Shown in pieces: positions 1 through 12,007 of a DNA stretch of 64,000 nucleotides. Source of the stretch: an uncultured Gammaproteobacteria bacterium (lineage in GTDB: Bacteria; Pseudomonadota; Gammaproteobacteria; SZUA-229); NCBI GenBank assembly GCA_963768215.1, contig CAVYHW010000006.1:426-64425 (forward strand). Direction: 5' to 3'. The notes beneath the pieces were generated by a model, which was not told where the DNA came from, made no database searches, and saw nothing but the letters and a program-made list of their open reading frames with translations. Every line of letters begins with the position of its first letter. Positions within the stretch are counted from its first letter, which is position 1. Made by a program: the position numbers and the translations under genes.

Positions 1-81
1 TGGTTATCTGTGATCAGCCAGACAGCATCTACAGCAGTTGGTTTTGATTTTTTTGCTTGGTACATGGAGTTACCGTATTGA
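1..81 (+). other. possible 3' end of an ORF entering from the left window edge
   Basis: Frame 1 is open from nt 1 to TGA at 79-81 (...AVGFDFFAWYMELPY*). Too short to identify. Confidence 0.2.
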
Positions 82-91
82 GGGGTAAATA

Positions 92-469
92 ATGACATGC
101 TTGTATAAACAGTATTCCTGTAATGCCATCATCCTGGGTTTCTGTCTAGTCCTGTCGGCAGGTCAGGCTATGGCAACCAACTTTGAACCACCAAAACTTG
201 ACGGCTTTAACCTGCATGCCGAACGTGATGCCGACGGGGATAAAGACGGCGTTAATGAAACCCACATCAAGCAGTACTTCAACGCCTCGGGCGACAGTAT
301 TGTCAGTATGACCACCAAAGATAAGGTTTGGGCCTGGAGCATGAGTACGCGCAATATGAAGTCAGGGGATAAAAATTTCGTTATCCGCGACAGCAATTGC
401 GATGGTCAGTTCAACGAAGTCTACGGGCTGGACGAAGAGTTTCATGTTCCCGATTGCCTGAAGAAATAG
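92..469 (+). CDS. small secreted protein of unknown family with two acidic DxDxDG-like loops
   Basis: 125-aa ORF with GAGGGG 6 nt upstream of the ATG. Signal-like N-terminus (ILGFCLVLSAGQAMA). Loops DADGDKDG and DSNCDGQ; two Cys in the mature part. Confidence 0.5.
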   Translation: MTCLYKQYSCNAIILGFCLVLSAGQAMATNFEPPKLDGFNLHAERDADGDKDGVNETHIKQYFNASGDSIVSMTTKDKVWAWSMSTRNMKSGDKNFVIRDSNCDGQFNEVYGLDEEFHVPDCLKK

Positions 470-526
470 TATGGTGCCCTGGTACTCCATCAATACAATG
501 TTGTTGGAACATCAGGACAGTGCAGA

Positions 527-1264
527 TTAGTTTTCTGCTGCAATTTGCAAACCAGCGTGCTGCAGAAGAGACTTACGAATAGCCACCAGGCTCTGGTCTT
601 CAGGTGAGCTGTCTATCATTGAGGAAATGGTTTCCAGGGCGTCATACCAGATGCCCTCGATGGCATAGACATTAACCAGCTCTGTTCCCTGGCTCTTCTT
701 AATGCGGCTGCTTAATCCTTCGCCTGGTTTTATGCGCTCGATAATACCACTGGCGATTGTAGTTGTTGACTGCTTACCTTTATCCATCAGCTGAACTACT
801 GACCATTGATAGCTAAGCTCGGGCTGCAGGGAGATGTCGTGCTTGCCCAGATCCAGTTGCTGAATGCCAGCGCCCTTTTTAATATCGACCTTTAGCAGTG
901 GATTAGCTCCAGGCTTTTCAGTCGCGGCAATGGTAAAGCGCACCGTTATCGGCGTGCGTGCATACCAGTAGAGGATTGGCTGAGGCTGCAGGGTCAAACC
1001 AGCATGATCCGGTGCCAGTACCTGCAATATTGTTGCCTTACCTTCCATGCTCCGGGCACTTTGACTTACCACGGCCGGAGGATCGTCACGTAGTGGTGCT
1101 TTGTAAAGGATGGCAGGTCGTATGGTTGTCGACCTTGCCTTAGGGCTGTCTATAGCTTGAGCCTGTTCTGCAGCGCTTGAAACGGAAGTGATGGTCACCA
1201 GTAAAATAGCGAAAACCAATGTCAGTCCTGTTTTTACGGTTACTAATAGCTTGTATTGTTTCAT
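527..1264 (-). CDS. DUF928-like secreted protein
   Basis: 245-aa ORF with a signal peptide. The PILYWY...SYQWSV...YAIEGIWYDALE pattern matches my recollection of DUF928 (mostly cyanobacterial). Confidence 0.6.
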   Translation of the reverse strand: MKQYKLLVTVKTGLTLVFAILLVTITSVSSAAEQAQAIDSPKARSTTIRPAILYKAPLRDDPPAVVSQSARSMEGKATILQVLAPDHAGLTLQPQPILYWYARTPITVRFTIAATEKPGANPLLKVDIKKGAGIQQLDLGKHDISLQPELSYQWSVVQLMDKGKQSTTTIASGIIERIKPGEGLSSRIKKSQGTELVNVYAIEGIWYDALETISSMIDSSPEDQSLVAIRKSLLQHAGLQIAAEN

Positions 1265-1300
1265 TCGGTAGTCTCGTGTGCTGCTTTGGTTGTAAGCGGT

Positions 1301-1640
1301 TCATGTAATACAGTGATATTCTGAAACCATCTGTTCGCTAGCAGTAATGGTGTTTTCATTATCACAGCCAGGGTTGCTATGTACACGGTAACCAATATTG
1401 CCTTTTGCGTCAATTAGAAAAGATTTGAGTGTAGCAGTAAATTAAAGTTTATAAGTTTGGCGAGCTTTCCGACTTTATTATCTTTTTTCACCGACATACA
1501 GCGCCAGGTTTTCGAATGGCTTATCGTCTAGTTGTTTTTAAGTTTTGTCGGTTCCGGCATTTCGTATCAGATAGGGGTAGGGACCGAAAACAATCTGTTC
1601 GGACACCCCTGATAGTTTCAGTTTCTGTGGTGAAATGATT
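1301..1640 (-). pseudogene. relic of a tlpA-like thiol:disulfide oxidoreductase (3' two-thirds only)
   Basis: Minus-strand translation aligns with about residues 66-193 of the intact TlpA at 9221-9802. Examples: SFLIDAKGNIGYRVHSNPGCD vs SFLIDGDGRVSYRIRGNPGWD; EMPEPTKLKNN vs EMPELTKLKKH; PFENLALYVGEK vs PFEILALNVGEK. The alignment needs frame changes and contains stops, and WCPPC has decayed to VPTPI*. Confidence 0.65.
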
Positions 1641-2027
1641 ATTAATTATTGGCTATCAAATCTGTTAAGTAATTAAATATTAGAATTTCATTAATTGTTA
1701 ATTGTTAATTGTGTAAGAAAACCCAACAAAATATTGGGTTATTAATGACAAAATCAGGATTACTTTAGTGTTTCTGTGAGCCCGTCAGGGTTTTAAAGCA
1801 GTCATACAGGCATTATGCAAAACTATATAGAATCAGTCTTATTATGTAAATAATTCCGACAAGGGTGCAGTCTGAAATGTGCTGTAGCCGTGATACAGGA
1901 ATATAAACACTATTATTAGTGTGTTTTCTAAGTGTTAACTAATTCGACAAACGTTGAAGTCTCTTTGCAGGATCGATTCAGCTGTTGATATTAAATTTAT
2001 ATCATAAATTGAAAAAATGTAAACAAT

Positions 2028-2040
2028 TGTCAGTTTGACA
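2028..2040. promoter_or_regulatory. palindrome TGTCA-gtt-TGACA, candidate upstream activator site
   Basis: Perfect 5+5 palindrome about 126 nt upstream of the -24 GG at 2160. An ATGTCAT copy lies at 2079-2085. The same motif family is clustered at 10205-10442. Confidence 0.3.
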
Positions 2041-2158
2041 TTTATCAAGTGACGATTTGGCATGCTTTACTGTTAGAGATGTCATATATATAGATAATTA
2101 GTAATATTCTGATATTCTTATACTTAGTGATAGTCGGTATTTTAAGTGTGATATTTTG

Positions 2159-2175
2159 TGGCATGGAATGTGCAT
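2159..2175 (+). promoter_or_regulatory. sigma54-type (-24/-12) promoter candidate upstream of the cytochrome gene
   Basis: TGGCATGGAATGTGCAT compared with consensus TGGCAC-N5-TTGCW. GG is at 2160-2161 and GC at 2172-2173, giving correct spacing. It lies about 130 nt upstream of the ATG at 2305. Confidence 0.45.
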
Positions 2176-2304
2176 AATAAATCTTAGATGCTATGTGCAT
2201 TTGTTATAAACCGTGTAGTTGAAAACATAAAGAATAATCAAAGGGTAGTTTTCGACACATAACTTAAACGTAAATGAACAACAAACCTTTGGGGGGATGA
2301 GGAC

Positions 2305-5300
2305 ATGTTTAGAAGTCTTCTAAGACAGTTCTTGAAAAAAGCAGTGACAATAGTCGCTGGTGCCGGGACCCTGCTATTTATTAGCACGGCTGGCACAAGT
2401 ACTCTACTATTTGTAGGGTCGATGACTACATCATTTGATGTAAATGCTGACAGTCACGATGATGTATTTAGAATCAAAAAAGCAGAGTGGAGCTCCAGGC
2501 GAAACCGCCTGACAGTCGAAGGTGAAGATGCTGACAGTCGTGTACTTGTCACGGTAACCAATGCAGATACCACCGCTTTTGTCGATGACGATGAATCCAG
2601 TCGAAAGGGTAAATGGCGGACACGAACGAGTTATGATAATACCTCTTCGGTTCCTTGTCGTGTTCGCGCCCAACAGCCAAATGGCGACTGGGATGAAAGA
2701 GATGTCAGTCGTGCACCGGCTGACTGTGATGATGGCGGTGGCGGCAATACCCCGCCGACAGCCAACGATGATGCGGCTACTACCAATCAGGACGTGCCGG
2801 TCACCATCAATGTACTGGCCAACGACACCGATCCCGATGTTGGTGATACCCTGAGTGTCGCTTCGGTAACACAGGGCGGCAACGGTAGTGTGACCAACAA
2901 CGGCACAGACGTGACCTACACACCGAATGCCGGTTGGTTCGGTATTGACACGTTCACCTATATCGCTACCGACGGAACAGATCCTAGCAACAGTGCCACA
3001 GTCACCGTGACCGTCAATCAGACTGGTGGTGGCAACAACCCGCCCACTGCCGTCGACCAGACCTTCCCCATCGACACTGCCGTACTGGACCGTGCCGGCC
3101 CCGACCTTATCCTGGGTAACGCAGAGGTTCCTGCACCAGGCGTACTCTTGAATGCAGCCGACCCGGACGGCGATACGCTCACCGCCGTGCTCGTGAGCGG
3201 TGCTTCTGCGGGCTCGCTGATCCTTAATCCGGACGGTTCTTTCGAATATACGCCGGCTTCCAGCCCTAGCACGGACAGCTTCACCTATCAGGCTGATGAC
3301 GGTAAGGTGGGCTAAGTGCAGTCCAAACCGTTGACCTCAGCGTACAGACCGGATTACAGGTCAACACCACTAGCCAGAACAAGTTCAACATCTTGTTGAA
3401 CTACGAGCTGGGCATGCACTGCACCGGTTTCGAGTTTGCCTACTGCTGTGTACTGCCGCCCTACAACTCGATCATCGGCCAGGTGGTGCGGACCGACAAG
3501 GGCAACAACGACAGCGACTTCCCGATGCTGCTGGAGGGCGATCCCAACGTCGGCCTGGATGGACTCGGCCGCGAGACGGTGCTGCGTGAACCACAACTGG
3601 ATGGCAATGGCAACTTCAACAAATACGTGATGAAGTACTGGCACGAGGCCCAGCCGCGTAACGACGGCCGTGGCAAGCCCCAGTCCAGCGTCATGATCAG
3701 CGCAGTGGAAGCCAATTCCCTGTTTATGTGGAACACGATCTATGATGCGGCTGACACTGATGCAGGTAACAATCTGGTCACCGGTACCTACGAAGGCGCC
3801 AGTGGTGTAGTCATGGGTAACGGCAACTACAACGATGCCAATGACAACTACGGCAGCGGCTGGATGAACCACTTCTATATCTACGCGGATCTGGAGGGCA
3901 GTAATCCCGCCAACTCCACAGCAGAGAAGGACAAGATCCGACTCGGCCTGGAGAATCTGAATGCCAGTACGGCGCTGTCACTGGCTGTACCGGCCGACTG
4001 TGGCCCGGCGTTCCACCCGATGGGCCCGGATACCCAGAACGGGGTTCCCGGCGATCCTGCGGTTGCCAACGACTGCGGCGGCTACTCCAACGGCAACCTG
4101 CTGACCTTCTCCACCGATCATGGTACCGTGGTCTACACCCAGATGAAGGTACTGGAGAATTTACCGGTGATGTTGACCTCGCCGCGCATCTGGGAGGCCC
4201 TGGGCCTGCCGCTGACGCCGTTTGAGGACACCATCGACTTCTTCAATGATCCGGGTCTGGTGGACGAAGACTCCGTGCGCCCGTTCGTCGCCATGAAGGC
4301 GCAGCTGCACAACTATGATGCGGGCGCCCCCAGTGGTGTTGGCACGCCGGTCATGGACGGTGGTAATCCGGTCATCGGTTTCGGCACCGCGCCGATCGAT
4401 ATCCCCAACTGCGAACGCTGCCACTCCGAACTGCAGGCGAGCAGCCAGAACAGCGCCCAGCAGATCGGCGGCAGAAATCCTGATATAGCGGCACTGGTGC
4501 AGGAGGAGATGGATTACTGGAATGGTCTCTATGGACTTACTCCGGGAGTCGACTCAGACTGGTACTCGCGTCTGAAGGGAGCGGCCATCAGTATCCTGGC
4601 CATCCACGATGCTCAGCACGGCACCAGCTTTACGGCTAATTATCCTGCAACGGGCACCAACCCGCTCAACCTGCCGGCAGACAAGCTGGCCTTCCCAGCA
4701 GAATACGCGTCTGGGCAAGGAGTCGGTAATCTGTCAGAAGTGCCACGCCGACAACGTGATCGCAGTGGTTAAATCGGCCAACTGTGCTCCGGGTAATGCA
4801 CTGTGTAGCTCGCCGGGTGCGCTGATCGTGCCTATCACCGAGGCTATCCACGACAACCATCGCAACGTCAGTGACGGCGGCGTCATCGTGATGGCCGACT
4901 CGCAGGGCCGTGATGGTGGCTGTCAGGGTTGCCACCCAGCTCACCGCTCCGACGGCGATATGGCCGGTTATCCCATCACCATCGAGGGTGATAACTTCTA
5001 CGCCGCTGTCGATAACCGCGACGCCAACGGCGGCTGCTTCGTCGGCCGCGACGTGCACTCCAACCCGGGCAAGGACACCGACGGTGCGGAGACGCCGGAG
5101 CACCTGAATGCAGTGGGAGAATGGCTGGCTGACAACGTGTTCAACGACGGCAACAGCGTGAACGGCGGTCTATGGTGTACCAACTGTCACCAGCAACTCG
5201 GCCAGGAGTTGTGGAAAGCTGAAAATATGGAAGACCTTGTCCATGGTGTTGGCCTGAACAACCCGCGTGGTGAACCGACACTGGCAGCTGTTGCGGCAGC

Positions 5301-6489
5301 GGTTGGCACCACTGAGGCACAGGCCATCGCCTGGCTGGATCCGAATGCCGACACAATCCGCTGGGTGACTTCACCCATGCCATCTGGGATCCGGATCCGG
5401 GTCTGTGTGACTACGTTTCGGGTGCTTTTGGGATTACCCCGGTTAATCCAGCCCACGATGGTAATGTGGCAACAGTGGAGGTTAACATCGGTAGCGGTAG
5501 CGGCTCTTGCTCCAATGCAGCTGATGCTAACGCATTCGCAGTACCTGTGGACTGCGGTTTCGTGACCTTCGATATCTGCGGTTCGACGGATGTCGACGGT
5601 GACTTCAGCGTGAACGCCATGGACTTCTGCACCACACCGGATTGTGTAGCTGCTGCACAGGTTACACTGGCTAGCACTTGTACTCCTGCTGCTGGTGAGC
5701 GGTGTGCGGTACCTGTGCCAATGTCGGCAGCCACCGATGGTCGTGACCACTGGTTGTCACCGGGTGAGCCTCACTGTGCGGACTGTCATGCAGCTCCATA
5801 CGTTGAGCAGAGCGGCAACATCAATGACTTCCCACCGTTCAACTACCCACGCAAGGCGAGCCTGATGCGTTACTCACGCGGTCACCAGGACATTACCTGT
5901 CAGGGCTGTCATGAGTCGATCCACGGTCTGTATCCCGTGACTCCGACCATCGACACCACCAGCTATGCCCAGGCGGCTAACCTGAACGCCGACGGTTCGC
6001 ACGGTCCGGTGAAGTGCAGTGCCTGCCATGCAGTTGATAACGAGGGTATTCCCGACCTGGATCGGAAACAATGCCGGTGGCACCCTGGGATCTATCAACG
6101 ACTTCGACGATGCGGTTGGCTGGGCCCACACCTACACGGAAGAGGACAGCGTGCTGACCAGCACCTGCCTCAACTGCCATGGTGTCCAGGGCAACAACTG
6201 GAGCGACGTGGCCGTCGACAACGAGTCCTATATGGAACATGCTGAATCGGGCAATAACAAGGACCTGCCGCGCAGCATGATGGACAAGGCCGAGATCGAG
6301 CTATACGGTGCGGTCTTCGGTACCACGGATGGTTCTGACGGTGCATGCCAGGGTTGCCACGGCGATGAAAGCAACAATGTTAGCTGCGGCGACACCGAGT
6401 GGAAGCTGCATCTGACCGAGGGACGTGTCGCCGAGTCGACCTGGGAGACGGCAAGCGTCGCTCAGACCGGCAGCACCTGCGGCTGGTAA
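2305..6489 (+). pseudogene. membrane-anchored cadherin-like / nonahaem c-type cytochrome, interrupted by four frameshifts
   Basis: Five overlapping ORFs alternate between two frames: 2305-3315 f1, 3393-4772 f3, 4609-5565 f1, 5466-6245 f3, 6019-6489 f1. They join near 3305, 4705, 5352 and 6060. GAGG RBS before 2305, then an N-terminal TM anchor. Two cadherin-like repeats (PPTANDDAATTNQDVPVTINVLANDTDPD..., about 2750-3350). CxxCH motifs at 4410-4424, 4732-4746, 4921-4935, 5176-5190, 5775-5789, 5898-5912, 6015-6029, 6166-6180 and 6346-6360. Confidence 0.75.
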
Positions 6490-6535
6490 AGCCAGTACAG
6501 GGAGCCTGCTCCCTTACTAGTGATGCAATAAGTGT

Positions 6536-6567
6536 GGAGGGGAAGTGATCTTCCCCTCCATTTTTGT
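6536..6567 (+). terminator. rho-independent terminator after the cytochrome gene
   Basis: GGAGGGGAAG-tgat-CTTCCCCTCC followed by ATTTTTGT. Confidence 0.75.
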
Positions 6568-6661
6568 ATCAGCATCTTAAAGAGTTGTAGAAGCTGTACG
6601 TTTATGCGAACCTCTATACCTAACGAATAACACTGTCTATTTTTATTATCGAGAAGTTACT

Positions 6662-8174
6662 ATGCAGCAACAAATTGTTTATAAAATTATCACCGCCCTG
6701 TTGTTATCTTCCAGCCTGTTTTTAGCCGGATGCAGCGACGACAAGGCAGAAGAAATAAGCCAGCGAAGTTTCCACGATGAAAAGGCTGCCAATCCTGACG
6801 TCATTGCCCGTGTCGGTGACGAAGTGATCAGCTTCAGCGAGCTCAATACCCTGCTCAACAGCTCGGCGATTGTCGGCCTGTCCGTACCCGCACTGGGAAC
6901 GCCGGAACGCAACCGGGTGCGCATCACCCTGTTGGACAAGTTGGTCTCAGCCAACCTGCTCTATCTGGATGCCCTTAAGCACGGCATGGATAAGGACCCT
7001 GTTTATGTTGGCGATATGCAACAATTTACCGATGGTGTCCTGGCCGCGCTCTATCGCCAGCAGCACCTGATTGGGGAAATCGAGATTACTGACGCTGAGG
7101 TGCAGGAATTTTTCGAGAATTCCATCATGCCGGGTACAAAGATGACGGACGACATCAGGCTCGGCATCGAGGCCACGATCCGCAAGCAGCGTTTCAAGGC
7201 TCGCACGGCGACCATGCAGGCACGGTTGCGGGAAGGCGTCGAGGTCAACATCGATGAGAGCGTCCTCGATTCTGCCGGTGATGACGAACGTGAAGACGCG
7301 GCGGTGGTGGCCAGCATTGATGGCGAACCGGTGCGCTGGGAGGCAGTGAAGGAGTTGCTGGTCACAGAGAGCAAACGCACCGCCCGGGCCGAGTTTCATC
7401 TGGACGAGGATGAGGAACGGGCCAGGGCACTCAACGGCTACATCGATACGCGCATCATGGCGAAGAAGGGCCGGACGGCGGGGCTGGAGCAGGACCCGGT
7501 TTACCAGCGTCGCTTTAAGGAGATACAGCAAGAACCACATGACCAACCTGCATCGGGAGCGCTTGATCAGGGAAATGGATCCGACCGAGGAAGAGCTGTG
7601 GGATTACTTCGAGGACAATAAAGACGCCATCACCGTGCGTGAGGCACGAAAGGTGCAGATGGTCGTCCTGAAAACGCGGGAAGAGGCCGAGGCGATCAAA
7701 ACAAGGATCGGGGCGGGAGAAATCACGATCTTTGAGGCGGCACGCGATCATTCCATCGATCCGAATGCCAAGCAGACCCTGGGAGAGATGGGCTGGGTGG
7801 TGAAGGGCACCGGCTTTCCGGAGCTCGATAAGGCGACCTTCTCATTGGATCTGGATACGCTGAGTGACCCGGTGGAATCACCGGCCGGCTGGCACCTGGT
7901 GAAGGTGCTCGACATGCGTGACGCGGAGCTCGAGGACATTATGAACGAAACGACTCGAAAGACGACCCGGCGCAGGTACCTGCAGGAAAAGATGAATGAG
8001 TACGTCGTCAACCTGCGCAAGAACGAGTTTCCAGTGGTGGTGTATGAGGAAAATATCGATCGGCTGTTCAAGGCAGAAGCGGAATGGGTCGCAGCACTTG
8101 AGGAAAAGGCCAGGCAGTCACCTGAAGAAACGCAAAAGCGCCTGGATGAGACTACGAAGTTCATGAAGCCTTAA
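6662..8174 (+). pseudogene. lipoprotein SurA-N/parvulin (PpiC-type) peptidyl-prolyl isomerase, one frameshift
   Basis: ORFs 6662-7621 (f2) and 7410-8174 (f3) join near 7525-7535 (...PVYQRRFKE|YSKNHMTNLHRERLI...). Lipobox LFLAGC. Rotamase core ARKVQMVVL...GEMGWV...SPAGWHLVKV. Confidence 0.7.
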
Positions 8175-8187
8175 AGGTGTCAGGAGT

Positions 8188-8274
8188 GAATGGCACTTAC
8201 TCAGCCATAAGCCCTGTCATTGCAATGACGAATACTGCGATAAGGTATTTGAAAAGGCTTAAGTAAGTGCCATT
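8188..8274. mobile_element. MITE-like element, family E (short copy)
   Basis: Inverted termini GAATGGCACTTAC... / ...TTAAGTAAGTGCCATT, as in 25015-25212. Inner palindrome GTCATTGCAATGAC. Confidence 0.55.
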
Positions 8275-8295
8275 GGGCTCCTATCCCTCATTATG

Positions 8296-8493
8296 CTAAG
8301 GAGCAGCAGCTGATTGTGGTTGCCCAACGATTTTTTGTAACTCACCAATATTTTGTTGCAGGCGCTGCATTGCCAGCTGGTTCCTTTGCTGTACCAGCTG
8401 TGGTAATGCATTGATAACTTTTTGCCCTGCCGGCGTAAGATAGAAGTCATTGACTGCTTTTAATTCGTCTTCACTGAAAGTTTGCATATACAT
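8296..8493 (-). pseudogene. orphan 3' fragment (65 codons) of a second DUF2059 gene
   Basis: Aligns base-for-base with 8716-8913, the 3' end of the intact gene. Its 5' part is replaced by element C1. Confidence 0.65.
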
Positions 8494-8499
8494 AGTACT

Positions 8500-8711
8500 G
8501 TAGGATGCAGTGAGGTACGAACCGCGTCATTCGCGTATTAAGCTGTGGAATAATAAAGCTTATAGTTTGTGTTTTTACTACGCGCCTCCTACGCTACGTC
8601 CTTCGGACCGTACTAGCGTCCGTTCAAAATGCTCCCGGCATTTTAGTGTGATTTTCACGGACTTGTATTGTTTAATGCAATCGATGCGGTTCGTACCTCA
8701 CCGCATCCTAC
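8500..8711. mobile_element. palindromic MITE-like element, family C, carrying a nested D insertion
   Basis: Arms GTAGGATGCAGTGAGGTACGAACCGC / GCGGTTCGTACCTCACCGCATCCTAC. Other copies at 15382-15472 and 25084-25151; half copies at 16676-16711 and 62559-62596. Confidence 0.65.
8577..8648. mobile_element. 72-bp micro-insertion, family D
   Basis: ACTACGCGCCTCCTACGCTACGTCCTTCGGACCGTACTAGCGTCCGTTCAAAATGCTCCCGGCATTTTAGTG. Near-identical copy at 62865-62936. Contains the hairpin AAAATGC-tcccg-GCATTTT. Confidence 0.6.
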
Positions 8712-8715
8712 GCAA

Positions 8716-9201
8716 CTAAGGAGCAGGTGCTGGTGCTGGTGGAGCAATAATCTTCTGTAACTCACCAATATTCTGCTGCAGGCGCTGCATTGCCAGCTGG
8801 TTTCTTTGCTGTACCAGCTGTGGTAATGCAGTGATAACTTTCTGTCCTGCCGGGGTGATGTAAAAGTCATTGACTGCTTTTAATTCGTCTTCACTGAAAG
8901 TTTGCATATACATAGCGGCAAGGTCGGTTTTCAGCGCATTCCAGCCGATATATTTTGTGAAGAAGTTGCGCATTTCTGTGCTGTGTTTTGCCAGCTGCGG
9001 GTTCTGGCGTAATTGCAGCTGTAAAACTGAATCAACACTCTCATCGATTTTCTTTTCCATCTGGGTCAGTTTGAAAAGCTTTTCTACTTCCTGCAGGTGG
9101 GCCTGGTTGTTTGCGGCCAGATTGTCTGCGGCCTGTGATAGCGGAGAGATTGATAACAGAAAAAATGATGTTGCTGATATCAGGGTATTCAATGGTTTCA
9201 T
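8716..9201 (-). CDS. DUF2059-like periplasmic protein
   Basis: 161 aa with a signal peptide. C-terminal ...FSEDELKAVNDFYITPAGQKV... is typical of DUF2059 as I recall it. Confidence 0.7.
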   Translation of the reverse strand: MKPLNTLISATSFFLLSISPLSQAADNLAANNQAHLQEVEKLFKLTQMEKKIDESVDSVLQLQLRQNPQLAKHSTEMRNFFTKYIGWNALKTDLAAMYMQTFSEDELKAVNDFYITPAGQKVITALPQLVQQRNQLAMQRLQQNIGELQKIIAPPAPAPAP

Positions 9202-9220
9202 TAGTATGTCTCGTTTATAG

Positions 9221-9802
9221 TTAGTTATCTGGTTTAGTAGTTATAGTTGATTCTGTGATGAGTTTTTCAATTAATGTGATGGTTTCTTCCTGATCCCAGC
9301 CCGGGTTGCCTCGTATCCTGTAACTAACTCGTCCATCGCCATCAATCAGGAAACTGGTGGGTAATGTTTGAACGCCCCAGGCATCGAAGGTTTCACTGGA
9401 GGTGTCCAGTAATACCGGTAGATTGAAATTGATCAGCTTTACAAATTTTCTAACCCGGTATTTTTTTTCCCCGACATTGAGTGCAAGTATCTCGAATGGC
9501 TGTCCGGCAAAATGCTTTTTAAGCTTTGTCAGTTCAGGCATTTCATAAATGCAGGGTGGGCACCAGCTTGCCCAGAAGTTAACCAGTACTACTTTACCCC
9601 GGTAATCGGATAATTCATGTTGCTGGTTTTTCAGGTCAGGCAGGGTGAATTTATCTGCCCCGCTATCAGCAGACCAGGGCTGTATTTCCGCCTGGCCGGC
9701 AATGGCTTGTTGTAAACAGCATAGCAATAATACCAATGCAGCGGCCAGTCCGGTAGCGAGTTGTGTTTGCCACGGTCTGGCAGAGTTATTGAATAGAAAC
9801 AT
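9221..9802 (-). CDS. TlpA/ResA-family thiol:disulfide oxidoreductase
   Basis: 193 aa with a signal/anchor segment. Thioredoxin motif NFWASWCPPC. Confidence 0.85.
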   Translation of the reverse strand: MFLFNNSARPWQTQLATGLAAALVLLLCCLQQAIAGQAEIQPWSADSGADKFTLPDLKNQQHELSDYRGKVVLVNFWASWCPPCIYEMPELTKLKKHFAGQPFEILALNVGEKKYRVRKFVKLINFNLPVLLDTSSETFDAWGVQTLPTSFLIDGDGRVSYRIRGNPGWDQEETITLIEKLITESTITTKPDN

Positions 9803-9856
9803 TGCACTATTTTGAACGGTGCTGTAGTGATGTCAACAAAATAAATTTCTCTGGAT

Positions 9857-10158
9857 TTAACCCGGATATTTCATAGGAGCGCTGTTAAATTCACTTAACG
9901 CTATGATTATATTAAGAAATAGCAGTATGTTAGAAAAGTGCACTATGTGTCCGACAACGCTATGCAGTTTTTGCCATTACTATTTTTTGTGGATATCAGC
10001 GGCCCCATGATTAATTTATTTTGGGTACGATTCACCTGTAACCATAGCTACGGCTATGCACATAAAGTGATCATGGGGCGAATCGTACAAACTGACTCAC
10101 TGACCGATTTTATAAAATATCTCCCCATTGTCTGCATTCCTATGAAATATCCGGGTTA
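9857..10158 (+). mobile_element. MITE-like ~290-bp element, family F (copy 1)
   Basis: Perfect 18-bp TIR CCCGGATATTTCATAGGA (9861-9878) / TCCTATGAAATATCCGGG (10138-10155). Core shared with 38565-38853 and 59439-59727. Confidence 0.7.
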
Positions 10159-10204
10159 ATTCTCGACAGCTTGTTGCACGCTTGTTTATTAAAATTAGAC
10201 TCTC

Positions 10205-10442
10205 TGTCAATTTAGGCAAATGTGACAAAATTTAATCGGTTTTTAGTTATTATGTAAAGAAATATGACATGCTGACATGTGTCAGGGAGAATATGTCATG
10301 ATTTGCATTTTAGATTTGTTTATAAGTAACTGTATTTGATTACTATTTTCATAAGGTTATCGTGTGTATGACATTTTGCCCTAATCAATGTCTGTTTGTA
10401 CTGTTGCATGACAACTCTGTCATGTGTATAGTATTTATGTCA
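10205..10442. promoter_or_regulatory. array of ATGACAT/ATGTCAT (TGACA/TGTCA) motifs upstream of the sigma54 activator gene
   Basis: Ten TGACA/TGTCA pentamers in 238 nt. They include the palindromes TGACA-tg-TGTCA (10273-10284) and ATGACA-actc-TGTCAT (10408-10423). Confidence 0.4.
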
Positions 10443-10458
10443 AAGGGGGAGGTTTTCA

Positions 10459-11847
10459 GTGGACAAAAAAGTTGAAAGCAAAGCATCAATTGATCTGGAA
10501 TCACTGGTAAATAGTCACGACAGGCCCTTTGTAGTCATTGATAAGAATTATAATATCATGGCGGCAAACAGGGCTTACGAACAGTTGCATGGTGTAAAGG
10601 ACAGTAGCGCAATTGGTCAGAAGTGCTTTCAGGTCAGCCATAAAAAAGACCATCCATGCAGTGAAGAAGGTGAGGAATGTCCCCAGGAGTTTGTTTTTAA
10701 TACCGGGGAATCAAAAGTCTGTTCACATATTCATTGTGATGGCAATCATAACCTGTATCAGGTAAAAGTTTCTGCATTCCCGCTAAAAGGCCCGGGCGAC
10801 ACGATGTTTTTGGGCGAGTGTATTGAGCAGGTCGTCTCAATGAAAAATTTCGCAACCGGCACCAAGCAGATGGTTGGGGAATCACCCCAGTTCCTGGCAT
10901 GTGTTAATCAGTTGATGATTGCTTCCAGTTCAGATGCACCGGTGTTGTTGCAGGGCGAAACCGGTACCGGTAAGGAGCTGGCTGCCGAATTTGTCCATAA
11001 CCACTCATCTCGAAGTAAAAAACCTTTTCAGATTGTCGACAGCACCGTATTGACGGAAAGCCTGTTTGAGGCAGAGATGTTTGGCCACGTGGCTGGTGCT
11101 TATACAGGCAGTGCGGGCACCAAGCAGGGACTTTTTGAACTGGCTGAAGGTGGCACTATTTTTCTCGACGAGATAGGTGATATGCCGCTTTCGCAGCAGG
11201 TCAAGTTGCTGCGTGTGCTGGAATCCGGGCAGTATAGACCGGTTGGCGGGAAACGGCTTCGCAAGGCTGATGTGCGTATTATATGTGCGACCAACAGACA
11301 TTTATGGGAGTCAGTGCTTGCGGGCAAATTTCGTGAGGACCTGTATTATAGAATTGCGTGCCTGAATATTCGTCTGCCGGGTTTGCGCGAGCGTTTAGAT
11401 GATATCCCTGTGCTGGCGCAAAATTTACTTGAAGGCATTAATCGTTCCATGCATGGCAGTTATCATTTGATGCCTGATGCTTTTGATCGCCTGAAGGCAT
11501 ATCAATATCCGGGAAATGTACGTGAGCTGCGGAATGTCCTTTTCATTGCAGCAACACATAGTAACAATCGTGAAATTGATGCAGCGCTAATCGATGCAGT
11601 GATGGCTAATATGCCAAGCTGTAGTAAGTCTGCAAATAAAGAAGAGGCTCATACTGTATCAGAAATGCCATCACCTCAGGCTATTGATTCGAAGGCCGAA
11701 GAACCGCCAACGTTGAAGAACATGGAAGAGAAGCACATAAGAGATTTGCTGGAACGTTACCAGGGGAATCGTAAACTTGTTGCAGACGCGCTGGGTATTA
11801 GTGAGCGCACAATTTATCGAAAACTCAAACGCCTGGGGCTTAGCTGA
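10459..11847 (+). CDS. sigma54-dependent transcriptional activator (PAS-like Cys/His-rich sensor + AAA+ + Fis HTH)
   Basis: 462 aa. Walker A GETGTGKE. GAFTGA-loop variant GAYTGS. ...RIICATN... C-terminal ISERTIYRKLKRLGL. Confidence 0.9.
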   Translation: MDKKVESKASIDLESLVNSHDRPFVVIDKNYNIMAANRAYEQLHGVKDSSAIGQKCFQVSHKKDHPCSEEGEECPQEFVFNTGESKVCSHIHCDGNHNLYQVKVSAFPLKGPGDTMFLGECIEQVVSMKNFATGTKQMVGESPQFLACVNQLMIASSSDAPVLLQGETGTGKELAAEFVHNHSSRSKKPFQIVDSTVLTESLFEAEMFGHVAGAYTGSAGTKQGLFELAEGGTIFLDEIGDMPLSQQVKLLRVLESGQYRPVGGKRLRKADVRIICATNRHLWESVLAGKFREDLYYRIACLNIRLPGLRERLDDIPVLAQNLLEGINRSMHGSYHLMPDAFDRLKAYQYPGNVRELRNVLFIAATHSNNREIDAALIDAVMANMPSCSKSANKEEAHTVSEMPSPQAIDSKAEEPPTLKNMEEKHIRDLLERYQGNRKLVADALGISERTIYRKLKRLGLS

Positions 11848-11892
11848 GACTGTGTTCAGAATTGTAAGCGAGTCGTAAAAACAAAAAAATAT

Positions 11893-12007
11893 TTCACCAC
11901 AGAGGCACAGAGGACACAGAGGTTTTTATTGTTGTGCGCCTGCGGCGCATTAACAAACAAAAAAGTCTTTCTCTGTGTCCTCTGTGCCTCTGTGCCTCTG
12001 TGGTGAA
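11893..12007. repeat. family B palindrome (arms of CACAGAGG(A) tandem units, inner GC hairpin)
   Basis: TTCACCACAGAGGCACAGAGGACACAGAGG ... CTCTGTGTCCTCTGTGCCTCTGTGCCTCTGTGGTGAA. Inner hairpin TGCGCC-tgc-GGCGCA at 11935-11949. Confidence 0.8.

Follow-up and report, generated by a model that had tools for sequence, protein, structure and literature searches.

In Wolinella and Shewanella, the octahaem sulfite reductase MccA/SirA comes with a peptidyl-prolyl isomerase (PPIase), MccB/SirB: behind the gene for a large multihaem cytochrome of the periplasm stands one for a PPIase dedicated to it. Other relevant systems are the Shewanella outer-surface cytochromes MtrC, OmcA, MtrF and UndA, in which beta-rich domains alternate with multihaem blocks, the MtrC/OmcA group having ten or eleven haems; surface conduit cytochromes are reported to evolve fast (PMC12977616). 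OcwA of Thermincola potens is a nonahaem surface cytochrome (PMC6703420), and the MofA-MofB-MofC system of Leptothrix discophora places a PPIase gene beside redox-protein genes (PMC5566968). Here we describe a cytochrome gene in a 64-kb stretch of contig CAVYHW010000006.1 (assembly GCA_963768215.1), from an uncultured gammaproteobacterium, which we call the window; this gene appears as five overlapping open reading frames (ORFs) that an earlier sequence-only reading had proposed to be fragments of a single, cadherin-like, nine-haem protein.

The five plus-strand ORFs (2305-3315, 3393-4772, 4609-5565, 5466-6245 and 6019-6489) switch back and forth between frame 1 and frame 3, and nine CxxCH motifs lie in them, just as that reading described; the motifs are spread over pieces 2 to 5 as 1+3+3+2, with none in piece 1, and we found no CxxCH-bearing ORF elsewhere in the window. 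The stop-to-stop open stretches are 2278-3312 (frame 1), 3306-4769 (frame 3), 4576-5562 (frame 1), 5316-6242 (frame 3) and 6013-6486 (frame 1), and because the first two overlap so narrowly, junction 1 is confined to the seven bases 3306-3312. DNA alignment with the nearest relatives, contigs L001 and L004, placed each lesion at most 10 nt from its first estimate (3305, 4705, 5352 and 6060). All four lesions lie in runs of no more than 3 nt, in agreement with the original remark that none sits in a long homopolymer; the predicted series of single-base indels (-1, +1, -1, +1) held for junctions 1, 2 and 4, while junction 3 can be either -1 or +2. No piece contains an internal stop, as had been noted, and the repaired frame has no in-frame stop either.

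Homologues show how the pieces belong together. The repaired product has 1394 residues, close to the ~1390 first estimated, and a search with its core (1059 aa) matched at least 902 proteins, dozens of them at 55-78% identity over 98-100% of the core; the best full-coverage homologue was 78% identical, and one partial match reached 87%. With tblastn, the intact proteins P0001, P0002 and P0003 matched segments that adjoin in query coordinates across all four frame changes, the core pieces having E = 0; for P0001 the segments over the five pieces were 161-253, 256-726, 720-951, 952-1158 and 1158-1303. The search for colinear intact homologues that the earlier reading had suggested thus yielded them in large numbers, over every junction. 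Its claim that the second cadherin-like repeat runs across junction 1 was also borne out, by a Big_9 match (E 1e-31, two stretches) and by the sequence DDG[K/N]GGLSAVQTVDLSV, which matches P0008. That the ORFs are independent genes is ruled out, since intact homologues span each junction and one domain crosses the first. Judged from these alignments, the five overlapping ORFs are one gene, predicted to encode a secreted nine-haem cytochrome of ~1394 residues.

The repaired protein is predicted to begin with a Sec signal peptide and an immunoglobulin (Ig)-like module; two cadherin-like repeats follow, then a haem-free domain of ~355 aa, and finally nine haems, of which a beta-rich insert sets the first four apart from the last five. 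The nonahaem domain of the sequence-only reading therefore keeps its count of nine, but as 4 + 5 around an insert and not as a single block. The N-terminal hydrophobic segment, at first taken for a transmembrane anchor, is probably a signal peptide instead, as it aligns with the cleavable A-x-A-type Sec signal peptides of homologues (MF.GLLKQFLKK...SFDVNA, up to the cleavage site); those of 65 complete members are of Sec type, with a lipobox-like sequence in 1 of the 65. The hydrophobic core of the window's signal peptide (2341-2421) spans 28 aa, about twice the usual length when set against homologues such as P0019 (AGTLLFIST / AGTSTLLFVGS), and may reflect a small internal duplication. The cadherin-like repeats were recognised by PF17963 (E 1e-31), PF17803 (E 1.4e-26) and PF17892 (E 4.2e-26), in two stretches each. 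Among the N-terminal modules, the signal peptide and Ig-like module have their nearest relatives in P0048 and P0019, and repeat 1 has its own in P0009 (82%); because these differ from the nearest relatives of the core, the gene is a mosaic of modules.

The haem-bearing part sits at the edge of what existing models recognise. Piece 2 had no Pfam or NCBIfam match, and all multihaem Pfam matches of pieces 3 to 5, scanned separately, fell below threshold. Joined, the repaired protein scored 28.7 bits on PF14522 (cut-off 24.8), yet with no single stretch significant, and 29.6 bits on PF22113, the MtrC/MtrF domain II/IV model, just under its cut-off of 30; P0001 and P0036 pass that cut-off with 30.9-31.1 bits, the match being the C-terminal haem block. 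As for the expectation that the CxxCH-bearing pieces would match a cytochrome model, the repaired protein just reaches PF14522 by its total score, so that the earlier reading is not refuted here; the pieces alone, and the repaired protein on PF22113, stay below threshold. Conservation within the family is far clearer. All nine CxxCH motifs are invariant across 77 aligned sequences, and each of the 65 complete members has exactly nine; many further histidine and cysteine residues and a C-terminal CGW are likewise invariant across the 77, in which the haem-free domain starts with a near-invariant NYELGMHCTGFEFAYCC motif. The window protein keeps the family's His/Cys motif NYELGMHC...CC, the nine CxxCH, the terminal CGW and the downstream parvulin PPIase, and its repaired core retains all columns that are invariant in the family.

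An AlphaFold model of the core (predicted local distance difference test 72, predicted template modelling score 0.80) has, in order, a mixed beta/alpha haem-free domain, a helical haem region, a beta-rich insert that separates haem 4 from haem 5, and a second haem region. Foldseek found no match to this model in the PDB below E 2, and a profile search of the core against PDB sequences gave none at E <= 1; the ~1050-aa core has no curated Pfam or NCBIfam model and no PDB match in sequence or fold.

The cytochrome gene and the PPIase gene that follows it differ in composition from the chromosome around them. The pair (2900..8200) has 57-61% GC against 43-45% for its surroundings, and this excess over the flanks (+0.131) is the highest among 65 loci (median +0.042). 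GC content at third codon positions (GC3) is 0.37 in the first 300 nt of the gene and rises to 0.58-0.77 from 3306 on, compared with 0.35-0.48 in host genes. Positions 3040-6495 are ~85% identical in nucleotide sequence to the GC-rich contigs L001 and L004, and over the PPIase gene, from 6797 on, identity is 86% with L001 and 80% with L004. The rest of the window holds housekeeping genes (proS, dxs, ispA, radA, ffh, rimM, trmD, dapA and pdxST), and the flanks of the module hold the family's usual neighbours in host-like composition. Because both flanks do so, the locus is a native one whose two genes appear to be a replaced or acquired allele, and the cytochrome-PPIase module was probably acquired horizontally, as far as its composition and nucleotide identities can tell.

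The PPIase gene is split as well, by one added base at ~7520-7523 (AAGGAGATAC) that moves frame 2 to frame 3, so that this 5.9-kb module contains five frame changes while at least 40 other genes of the window, with full-length profile matches, contain none. The sequence-only reading had offered very recent inactivation or consensus errors as alternatives; that was the right pair, and the evidence leans to errors. On balance we favour an intact real gene and take all five frame changes, one of them in the PPIase and four in the cytochrome gene, for local indel errors of the consensus. The repaired core differs at 3 of 319 ultra-conserved columns, which is ordinary for intact homologues (median 2, with 3 or more in 26 of 76), and its dN/dS against L001 is 0.14; we found no nonsense codon, deletion or excess loss of conserved residues that would indicate relaxed constraint in the repaired protein beyond the indels themselves, and the gene still has a promoter-like motif, an RBS-like (ribosome-binding-site-like) sequence and a terminator-like hairpin. 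True decay at this locus looks different: the redoxin remnant at 1319-1640 has stops, frame changes and heavy substitution, as against only clean indels in the cytochrome and PPIase genes.

Among the loci retrieved, frameshifted copies of the family occur only in nanopore-only contigs of Microflora Danica, in 5 of 24 as against none of the 56 others (exact test, p roughly 0.002); assemblies of that project were made with Flye and one Medaka round (PMC12313526). There are two frame changes in L001, with one more in its PPIase gene, four in L004, whose flanks are intact, and one in L057, and paralogues in L008 and L024 are also affected. The module's two nearest relatives, L001 and L004, are thus both broken, at positions other than those in the window. 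L004 is CAWKAE010000022.1 of MFD03551.bin.2.47, a metagenome-assembled genome (MAG) labelled 'uncultured Halobacteria archaeon'; its locus is typical of the gammaproteobacterial family, and the archaeal name probably results from faulty binning or labelling.

Such indel errors could have arisen if the segment, being recently acquired or variable between strains, was covered by fewer or mixed reads when a metagenome was assembled from long reads. Two simpler versions were rejected: a uniform error rate, because all five lesions lie within 5.9 of 64 kb, and a consensus overwritten by reads from the L001 and L004 populations, because identity to those contigs stays at 74-92%. No independent copy of this strain's gene was found by exact-protein look-ups or by a junction-spanning search: piece 1, UbiU, ProRS, the redoxin, DUF2059 and the radical-SAM protein had no exact record, PdxT being the one match; a 120-aa query across junction 2 returned only fragments of 114-207 aa at no more than 81% identity. 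A 1.45-kb Logan contig (ENA run ERR12040029, PdxT match) is 99.93% identical to part of the window and stops short of the module.

Several observations weigh against consensus errors. Insertions make up three or four of the five lesions, and long homopolymers are not involved in any of them, a pattern unlike classic nanopore errors; the rest of the contig is clean, such that low or mixed local coverage is assumed, not shown; and the nanopore link is drawn from loci other than that of the window. The locus also holds genuine gene remnants, and foreign genes are often truly inactivated.

These points give a minority share of our credence to a real, very recent pseudogene pair, in which a GC-rich module from another gammaproteobacterium is decaying in its host with five true frameshifts. 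The restriction of frame changes to the compositionally foreign module while host genes stay intact, lesions unlike typical homopolymer errors and the other remnants at the locus (a redoxin pseudogene and a DUF2059 fragment) would all fit such a history. Yet the five indels are accompanied by no nonsense codon, larger deletion or excess change at ultra-conserved positions, and at a substitution-to-indel ratio of ~10:1, assumed here as the usual one, several such changes would be expected. The nearby true pseudogene looks very different, the nearest relatives would have to have been inactivated independently at other positions, and broken copies were found only in nanopore-only assemblies.

We regard as improbable an assembly chimera, in which a GC-rich segment of another organism was spliced in, either during assembly or when cross-mapped reads were used for polishing. 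Such an event would account for the rise from ~44% to ~58% GC over exactly two genes, the largest excess among the 65 loci, and for the ~85% nucleotide identity to GC-rich contigs. Against it stands the need for two precise switches at gene borders. GC3 climbs gradually through the 5' modules, and identity to L001 and L004, measured in 300-nt steps, stays at or below ~92%; the segment is thus no plain copy of either contig. Moreover, the flanks carry the small secreted ORF, DUF2059, TlpA-like redoxin and sigma-54 activator genes in host-like composition, and since these are the family's usual neighbours, a cytochrome-PPIase pair is expected at this very spot. Programmed recoding, with ribosomes shifting frame or transcription slipping at four sites, deserves practically no credence: strict frame alternation and stop-free pieces are what it would leave, but the junctions have no slippery heptamer, homopolymer or shared motif, homologues are intact at the same positions and broken relatives break elsewhere.

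The split is mainly a quality flag, probably an artefact or a trivial recent lesion; annotation pipelines would call a pseudogene or five hypothetical proteins and so miss a 1394-residue cytochrome. The split PPIase gene, the compositional island and the nanopore link, none of them noted in the sequence-only reading, make the split itself less remarkable. The more useful result is the family itself. An exhaustive profile search of 1.84 billion cluster representatives returned 471 matches, only three of them full-length representatives, and the family therefore clusters tightly; with a small number of remoter relatives it has just the haem-free domain and first haem block in common. Most carriers are sulfur-oxidising Gammaproteobacteria, but some MAGs of Desulfobacterales, Nitrospirota, Methylomirabilis and Bacteroidota have the gene too. 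It is common among sulfur-oxidising symbionts and bacteria of sediments (for example Thiodiazotropha, Thiogranum, Sulfuricaulis and Ectothiorhodospiraceae); identity is 55-88% across orders and even phyla. We found no description of a nine-haem, cadherin-like or PPIase-linked cytochrome in the literature on sulfur oxidisers. The impression that this was no described family thus stands, for the core lacks a Pfam or NCBIfam model and a PDB match and we found no paper on it, yet the family is large; as judged by these searches it is tightly conserved, unnamed and without a characterised member. Its Ig, cadherin, PKD and TSP3 modules are variable.

Tandem paralogues are common in the family. Core matches extend over more than 6 kb in L006, L010, L012, L017, L021, L034, L046, L047, L052, L054, L077 and L079, pointing to a second, neighbouring cytochrome gene in each of these twelve loci, and sample MFD03551 alone holds at least eight loci of the family.

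The gene neighbourhood recurs across 82 loci. A parvulin PPIase lies directly downstream in 73 of them, and other frequent neighbours are a TlpA-like WCPPC redoxin (38 loci), a sigma-54 activator (24), DUF2059 (14) and a small secreted ORF (14); a rhodanese gene, present in 13 loci, is missing from the window. Copper-related genes stand near some loci, as in L002 (16819-23439) and L001 (4775-5533): a multicopper oxidase with fn3, a Cus-like RND efflux system with HMBD, and SCO1/SenC. Their recurrence raises the possibility of copper binding at the conserved His/Cys motif in the haem-free domain.

Of 72 intact family genes, 17 have a stricter form of the sigma-54 promoter motif upstream, where ~1.3 would be expected. 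In the window, motif matches are at chance level (42 against 48 expected), so the candidate promoter at 2159-2174 gains weight only from this family-wide enrichment; it is accompanied by the conserved neighbouring sigma-54 activator gene, and the RBS-like sequence of the cytochrome gene is GGGGGG/GAGGA.

Table 1. Features of the cytochrome locus in the window.
Feature	Position	Strand	Remarks
Small secreted protein	92..469	+	Conserved family neighbour, 14 loci
DUF928 gene	527..1264	-	Directly upstream of locus; not recurrent in family
TlpA-like redoxin remnant	1319..1640	-	Decayed; stops, frame changes, many substitutions
Candidate sigma-54 (-24/-12) promoter	2159..2174	+	TGGCATGGAATGTGCA; one mismatch; 131 nt before ATG
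Piece 1	2305..3305	+	Frame 1; from ORF, profile matches and homologue alignment; ends with start of repeat 2
Predicted signal peptide	2305..2448	+	Part of piece 1
Small Ig-like module	~2449..2739	+	Part of piece 1
Cadherin-like repeat 1	~2740..3018	+	Part of piece 1
Junction 1	3304..3306	+	One base lost between 3305 and 3306 (GGTAA^GGTGGG); frame 1 to 3
Piece 2	3306..4697	+	Frame 3; end of cadherin-like repeat 2, ~355-aa haem-free domain, haem motif 1 (4410)
Junction 2	~4694..4698	+	One added base (TTCCCaGCAG); frame 3 to 1
Piece 3	4699..5355	+	Frame 1; haem motifs 2-4 (4732, 4921, 5176)
Junction 3	5353..5356	+	GACacAATCC, +2 (AC) or -1; frame 1 to 3
Piece 4	5355..6050	+	Frame 3; beta-rich Cys-containing insert (~5355-5770), haem motifs 5-7 (5775, 5898, 6015)
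Junction 4	6048..6052	+	One added base at ~6051 (ATTCCCgACC); frame 3 to 1
Piece 5	6052..6489	+	Frame 1; haem motifs 8-9 (6166, 6346), conserved C-terminus ...GSTCGW, stop codon
Intrinsic terminator-like hairpin	6534..6561	+	Strong; 12-bp stem then T run, 3' of cytochrome gene
PpiC/parvulin-type PPIase	6662..8174	+	Lipoprotein (LAGC lipobox), ~503 aa; partner of cytochrome gene
Partial DUF2059 duplicate	8296..8525	-	3' ~200 nt; 88.5-89% nt identity to DUF2059 gene; between PPIase gene and full copy
DUF2059 gene	8716..9201	-	Conserved family neighbour, 14 loci
TlpA/ResA-like thioredoxin-fold protein	9221..9802	-	WCPPC; conserved family neighbour, 38 loci
Sigma-54-dependent activator	10459..11847	+	PAS-like Cys-rich sensor domain; conserved family neighbour, 24 loci

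The redoxin remnant is a paralogue of the redoxin gene at 9221-9802 and sits in a 1-kb 'non-coding' stretch, 700 bp upstream of the cytochrome gene. Between the two DUF2059 copies is an inverted repeat of 36 nt (8493-8528 / 8683-8718). Another, of 25 nt (9854-9878 / 10138-10162; 96% complementary, with 259 nt between its arms), lies where the redoxin and sigma-54 activator genes are spaced apart; it may have a regulatory function as a folded structure or be a small mobile element. Rfam gave no match on window positions 1-12000.

How might such a protein work? The gene would be transcribed from the sigma-54 promoter and its product exported by Sec, with haems then attached in the periplasm and folding aided by the PrsA-like PPIase and the TlpA-like thiol-disulfide oxidoreductase. 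The His/Cys-bearing haem-free domain could bind a substrate or partner, the nine haems would wire electrons to a redox partner, and the variable Ig and cadherin modules may hold the protein at the surface. The extracellular electron-transfer or adhesion role first suggested for it is plausible; its high conservation points towards an enzyme-like or partner-specific role, and the variability of its Ig, cadherin, PKD and TSP3 modules towards a surface location. The MHC...CC motif of the haem-free domain is possibly a metal or sulfur site. Against this model, porin, NrfD-type, CymA-type or quinol-dehydrogenase partner genes do not recur in the 82 loci, and the model draws on domain content and gene neighbourhood only, in a family with no characterised member.

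With less than even confidence, we tentatively propose that sulfur oxidisers of sediments have in this family a new kind of redox enzyme that is secreted, or of protein for terminal electron transfer, one that would combine a His/Cys domain (MHC...CC) of unknown fold with nine haems, a PrsA-like foldase, a TlpA-like reductase and sigma-54 control, in a two-gene module passed between lineages. If so, the window holds a freshly transferred copy. Because its conservation resembles that of enzymes and not of fast-evolving electron conduits, the family is a candidate for carrying out a redox reaction, so far unrecognised, where oxic and anoxic zones meet. It is large and very conserved while having no curated name, model or structure, and its conserved partners (PPIase, TlpA-like redoxin and sigma-54 activator) offer handles for experiments.

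The four described systems each share something with this locus. With MofA-MofB-MofC it shares a PPIase gene beside redox-protein genes, a parallel extended by L002, where the cytochrome-PPIase pair is followed 3 kb further on by a multicopper oxidase; in the Leptothrix system, however, the multicopper oxidase is the main enzyme and the cytochrome is small, and the window has no multicopper oxidase. OcwA likewise has nine haems and a proposed cell-surface location, although our protein has no detectable sequence similarity to any solved chain, and OcwA is not known to have a ~355-aa haem-free domain, Ig or cadherin modules or a PPIase partner.

The alternation of beta-rich domains with multihaem blocks, together with the weak PF22113 similarity, recalls MtrC, OmcA, MtrF and UndA. 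Here a beta or mixed domain, four haems, a beta insert and five haems give nine, not the ten or eleven of the MtrC/OmcA group; the predicted Sec signal peptide has no lipobox, no MtrA/MtrB-type neighbours occur in the 82 loci, and the fold match of the core to MtrC (6qyc) has a non-significant E of 6.5, with no PDB sequence match. Surface conduit cytochromes are, besides, usually much less conserved than the nonahaem family (PMC12977616). The MccA/SirA system offers a parallel in gene order, a large multihaem cytochrome gene preceding a dedicated PPIase gene. The adjacent PPIase alone is common to both, since our protein has no sequence or fold similarity to solved chains and no MccC/MccD-like genes lie nearby; by analogy with that system, the conserved extra cysteines of the nonahaem family could hold a metal or reactive sulfur.

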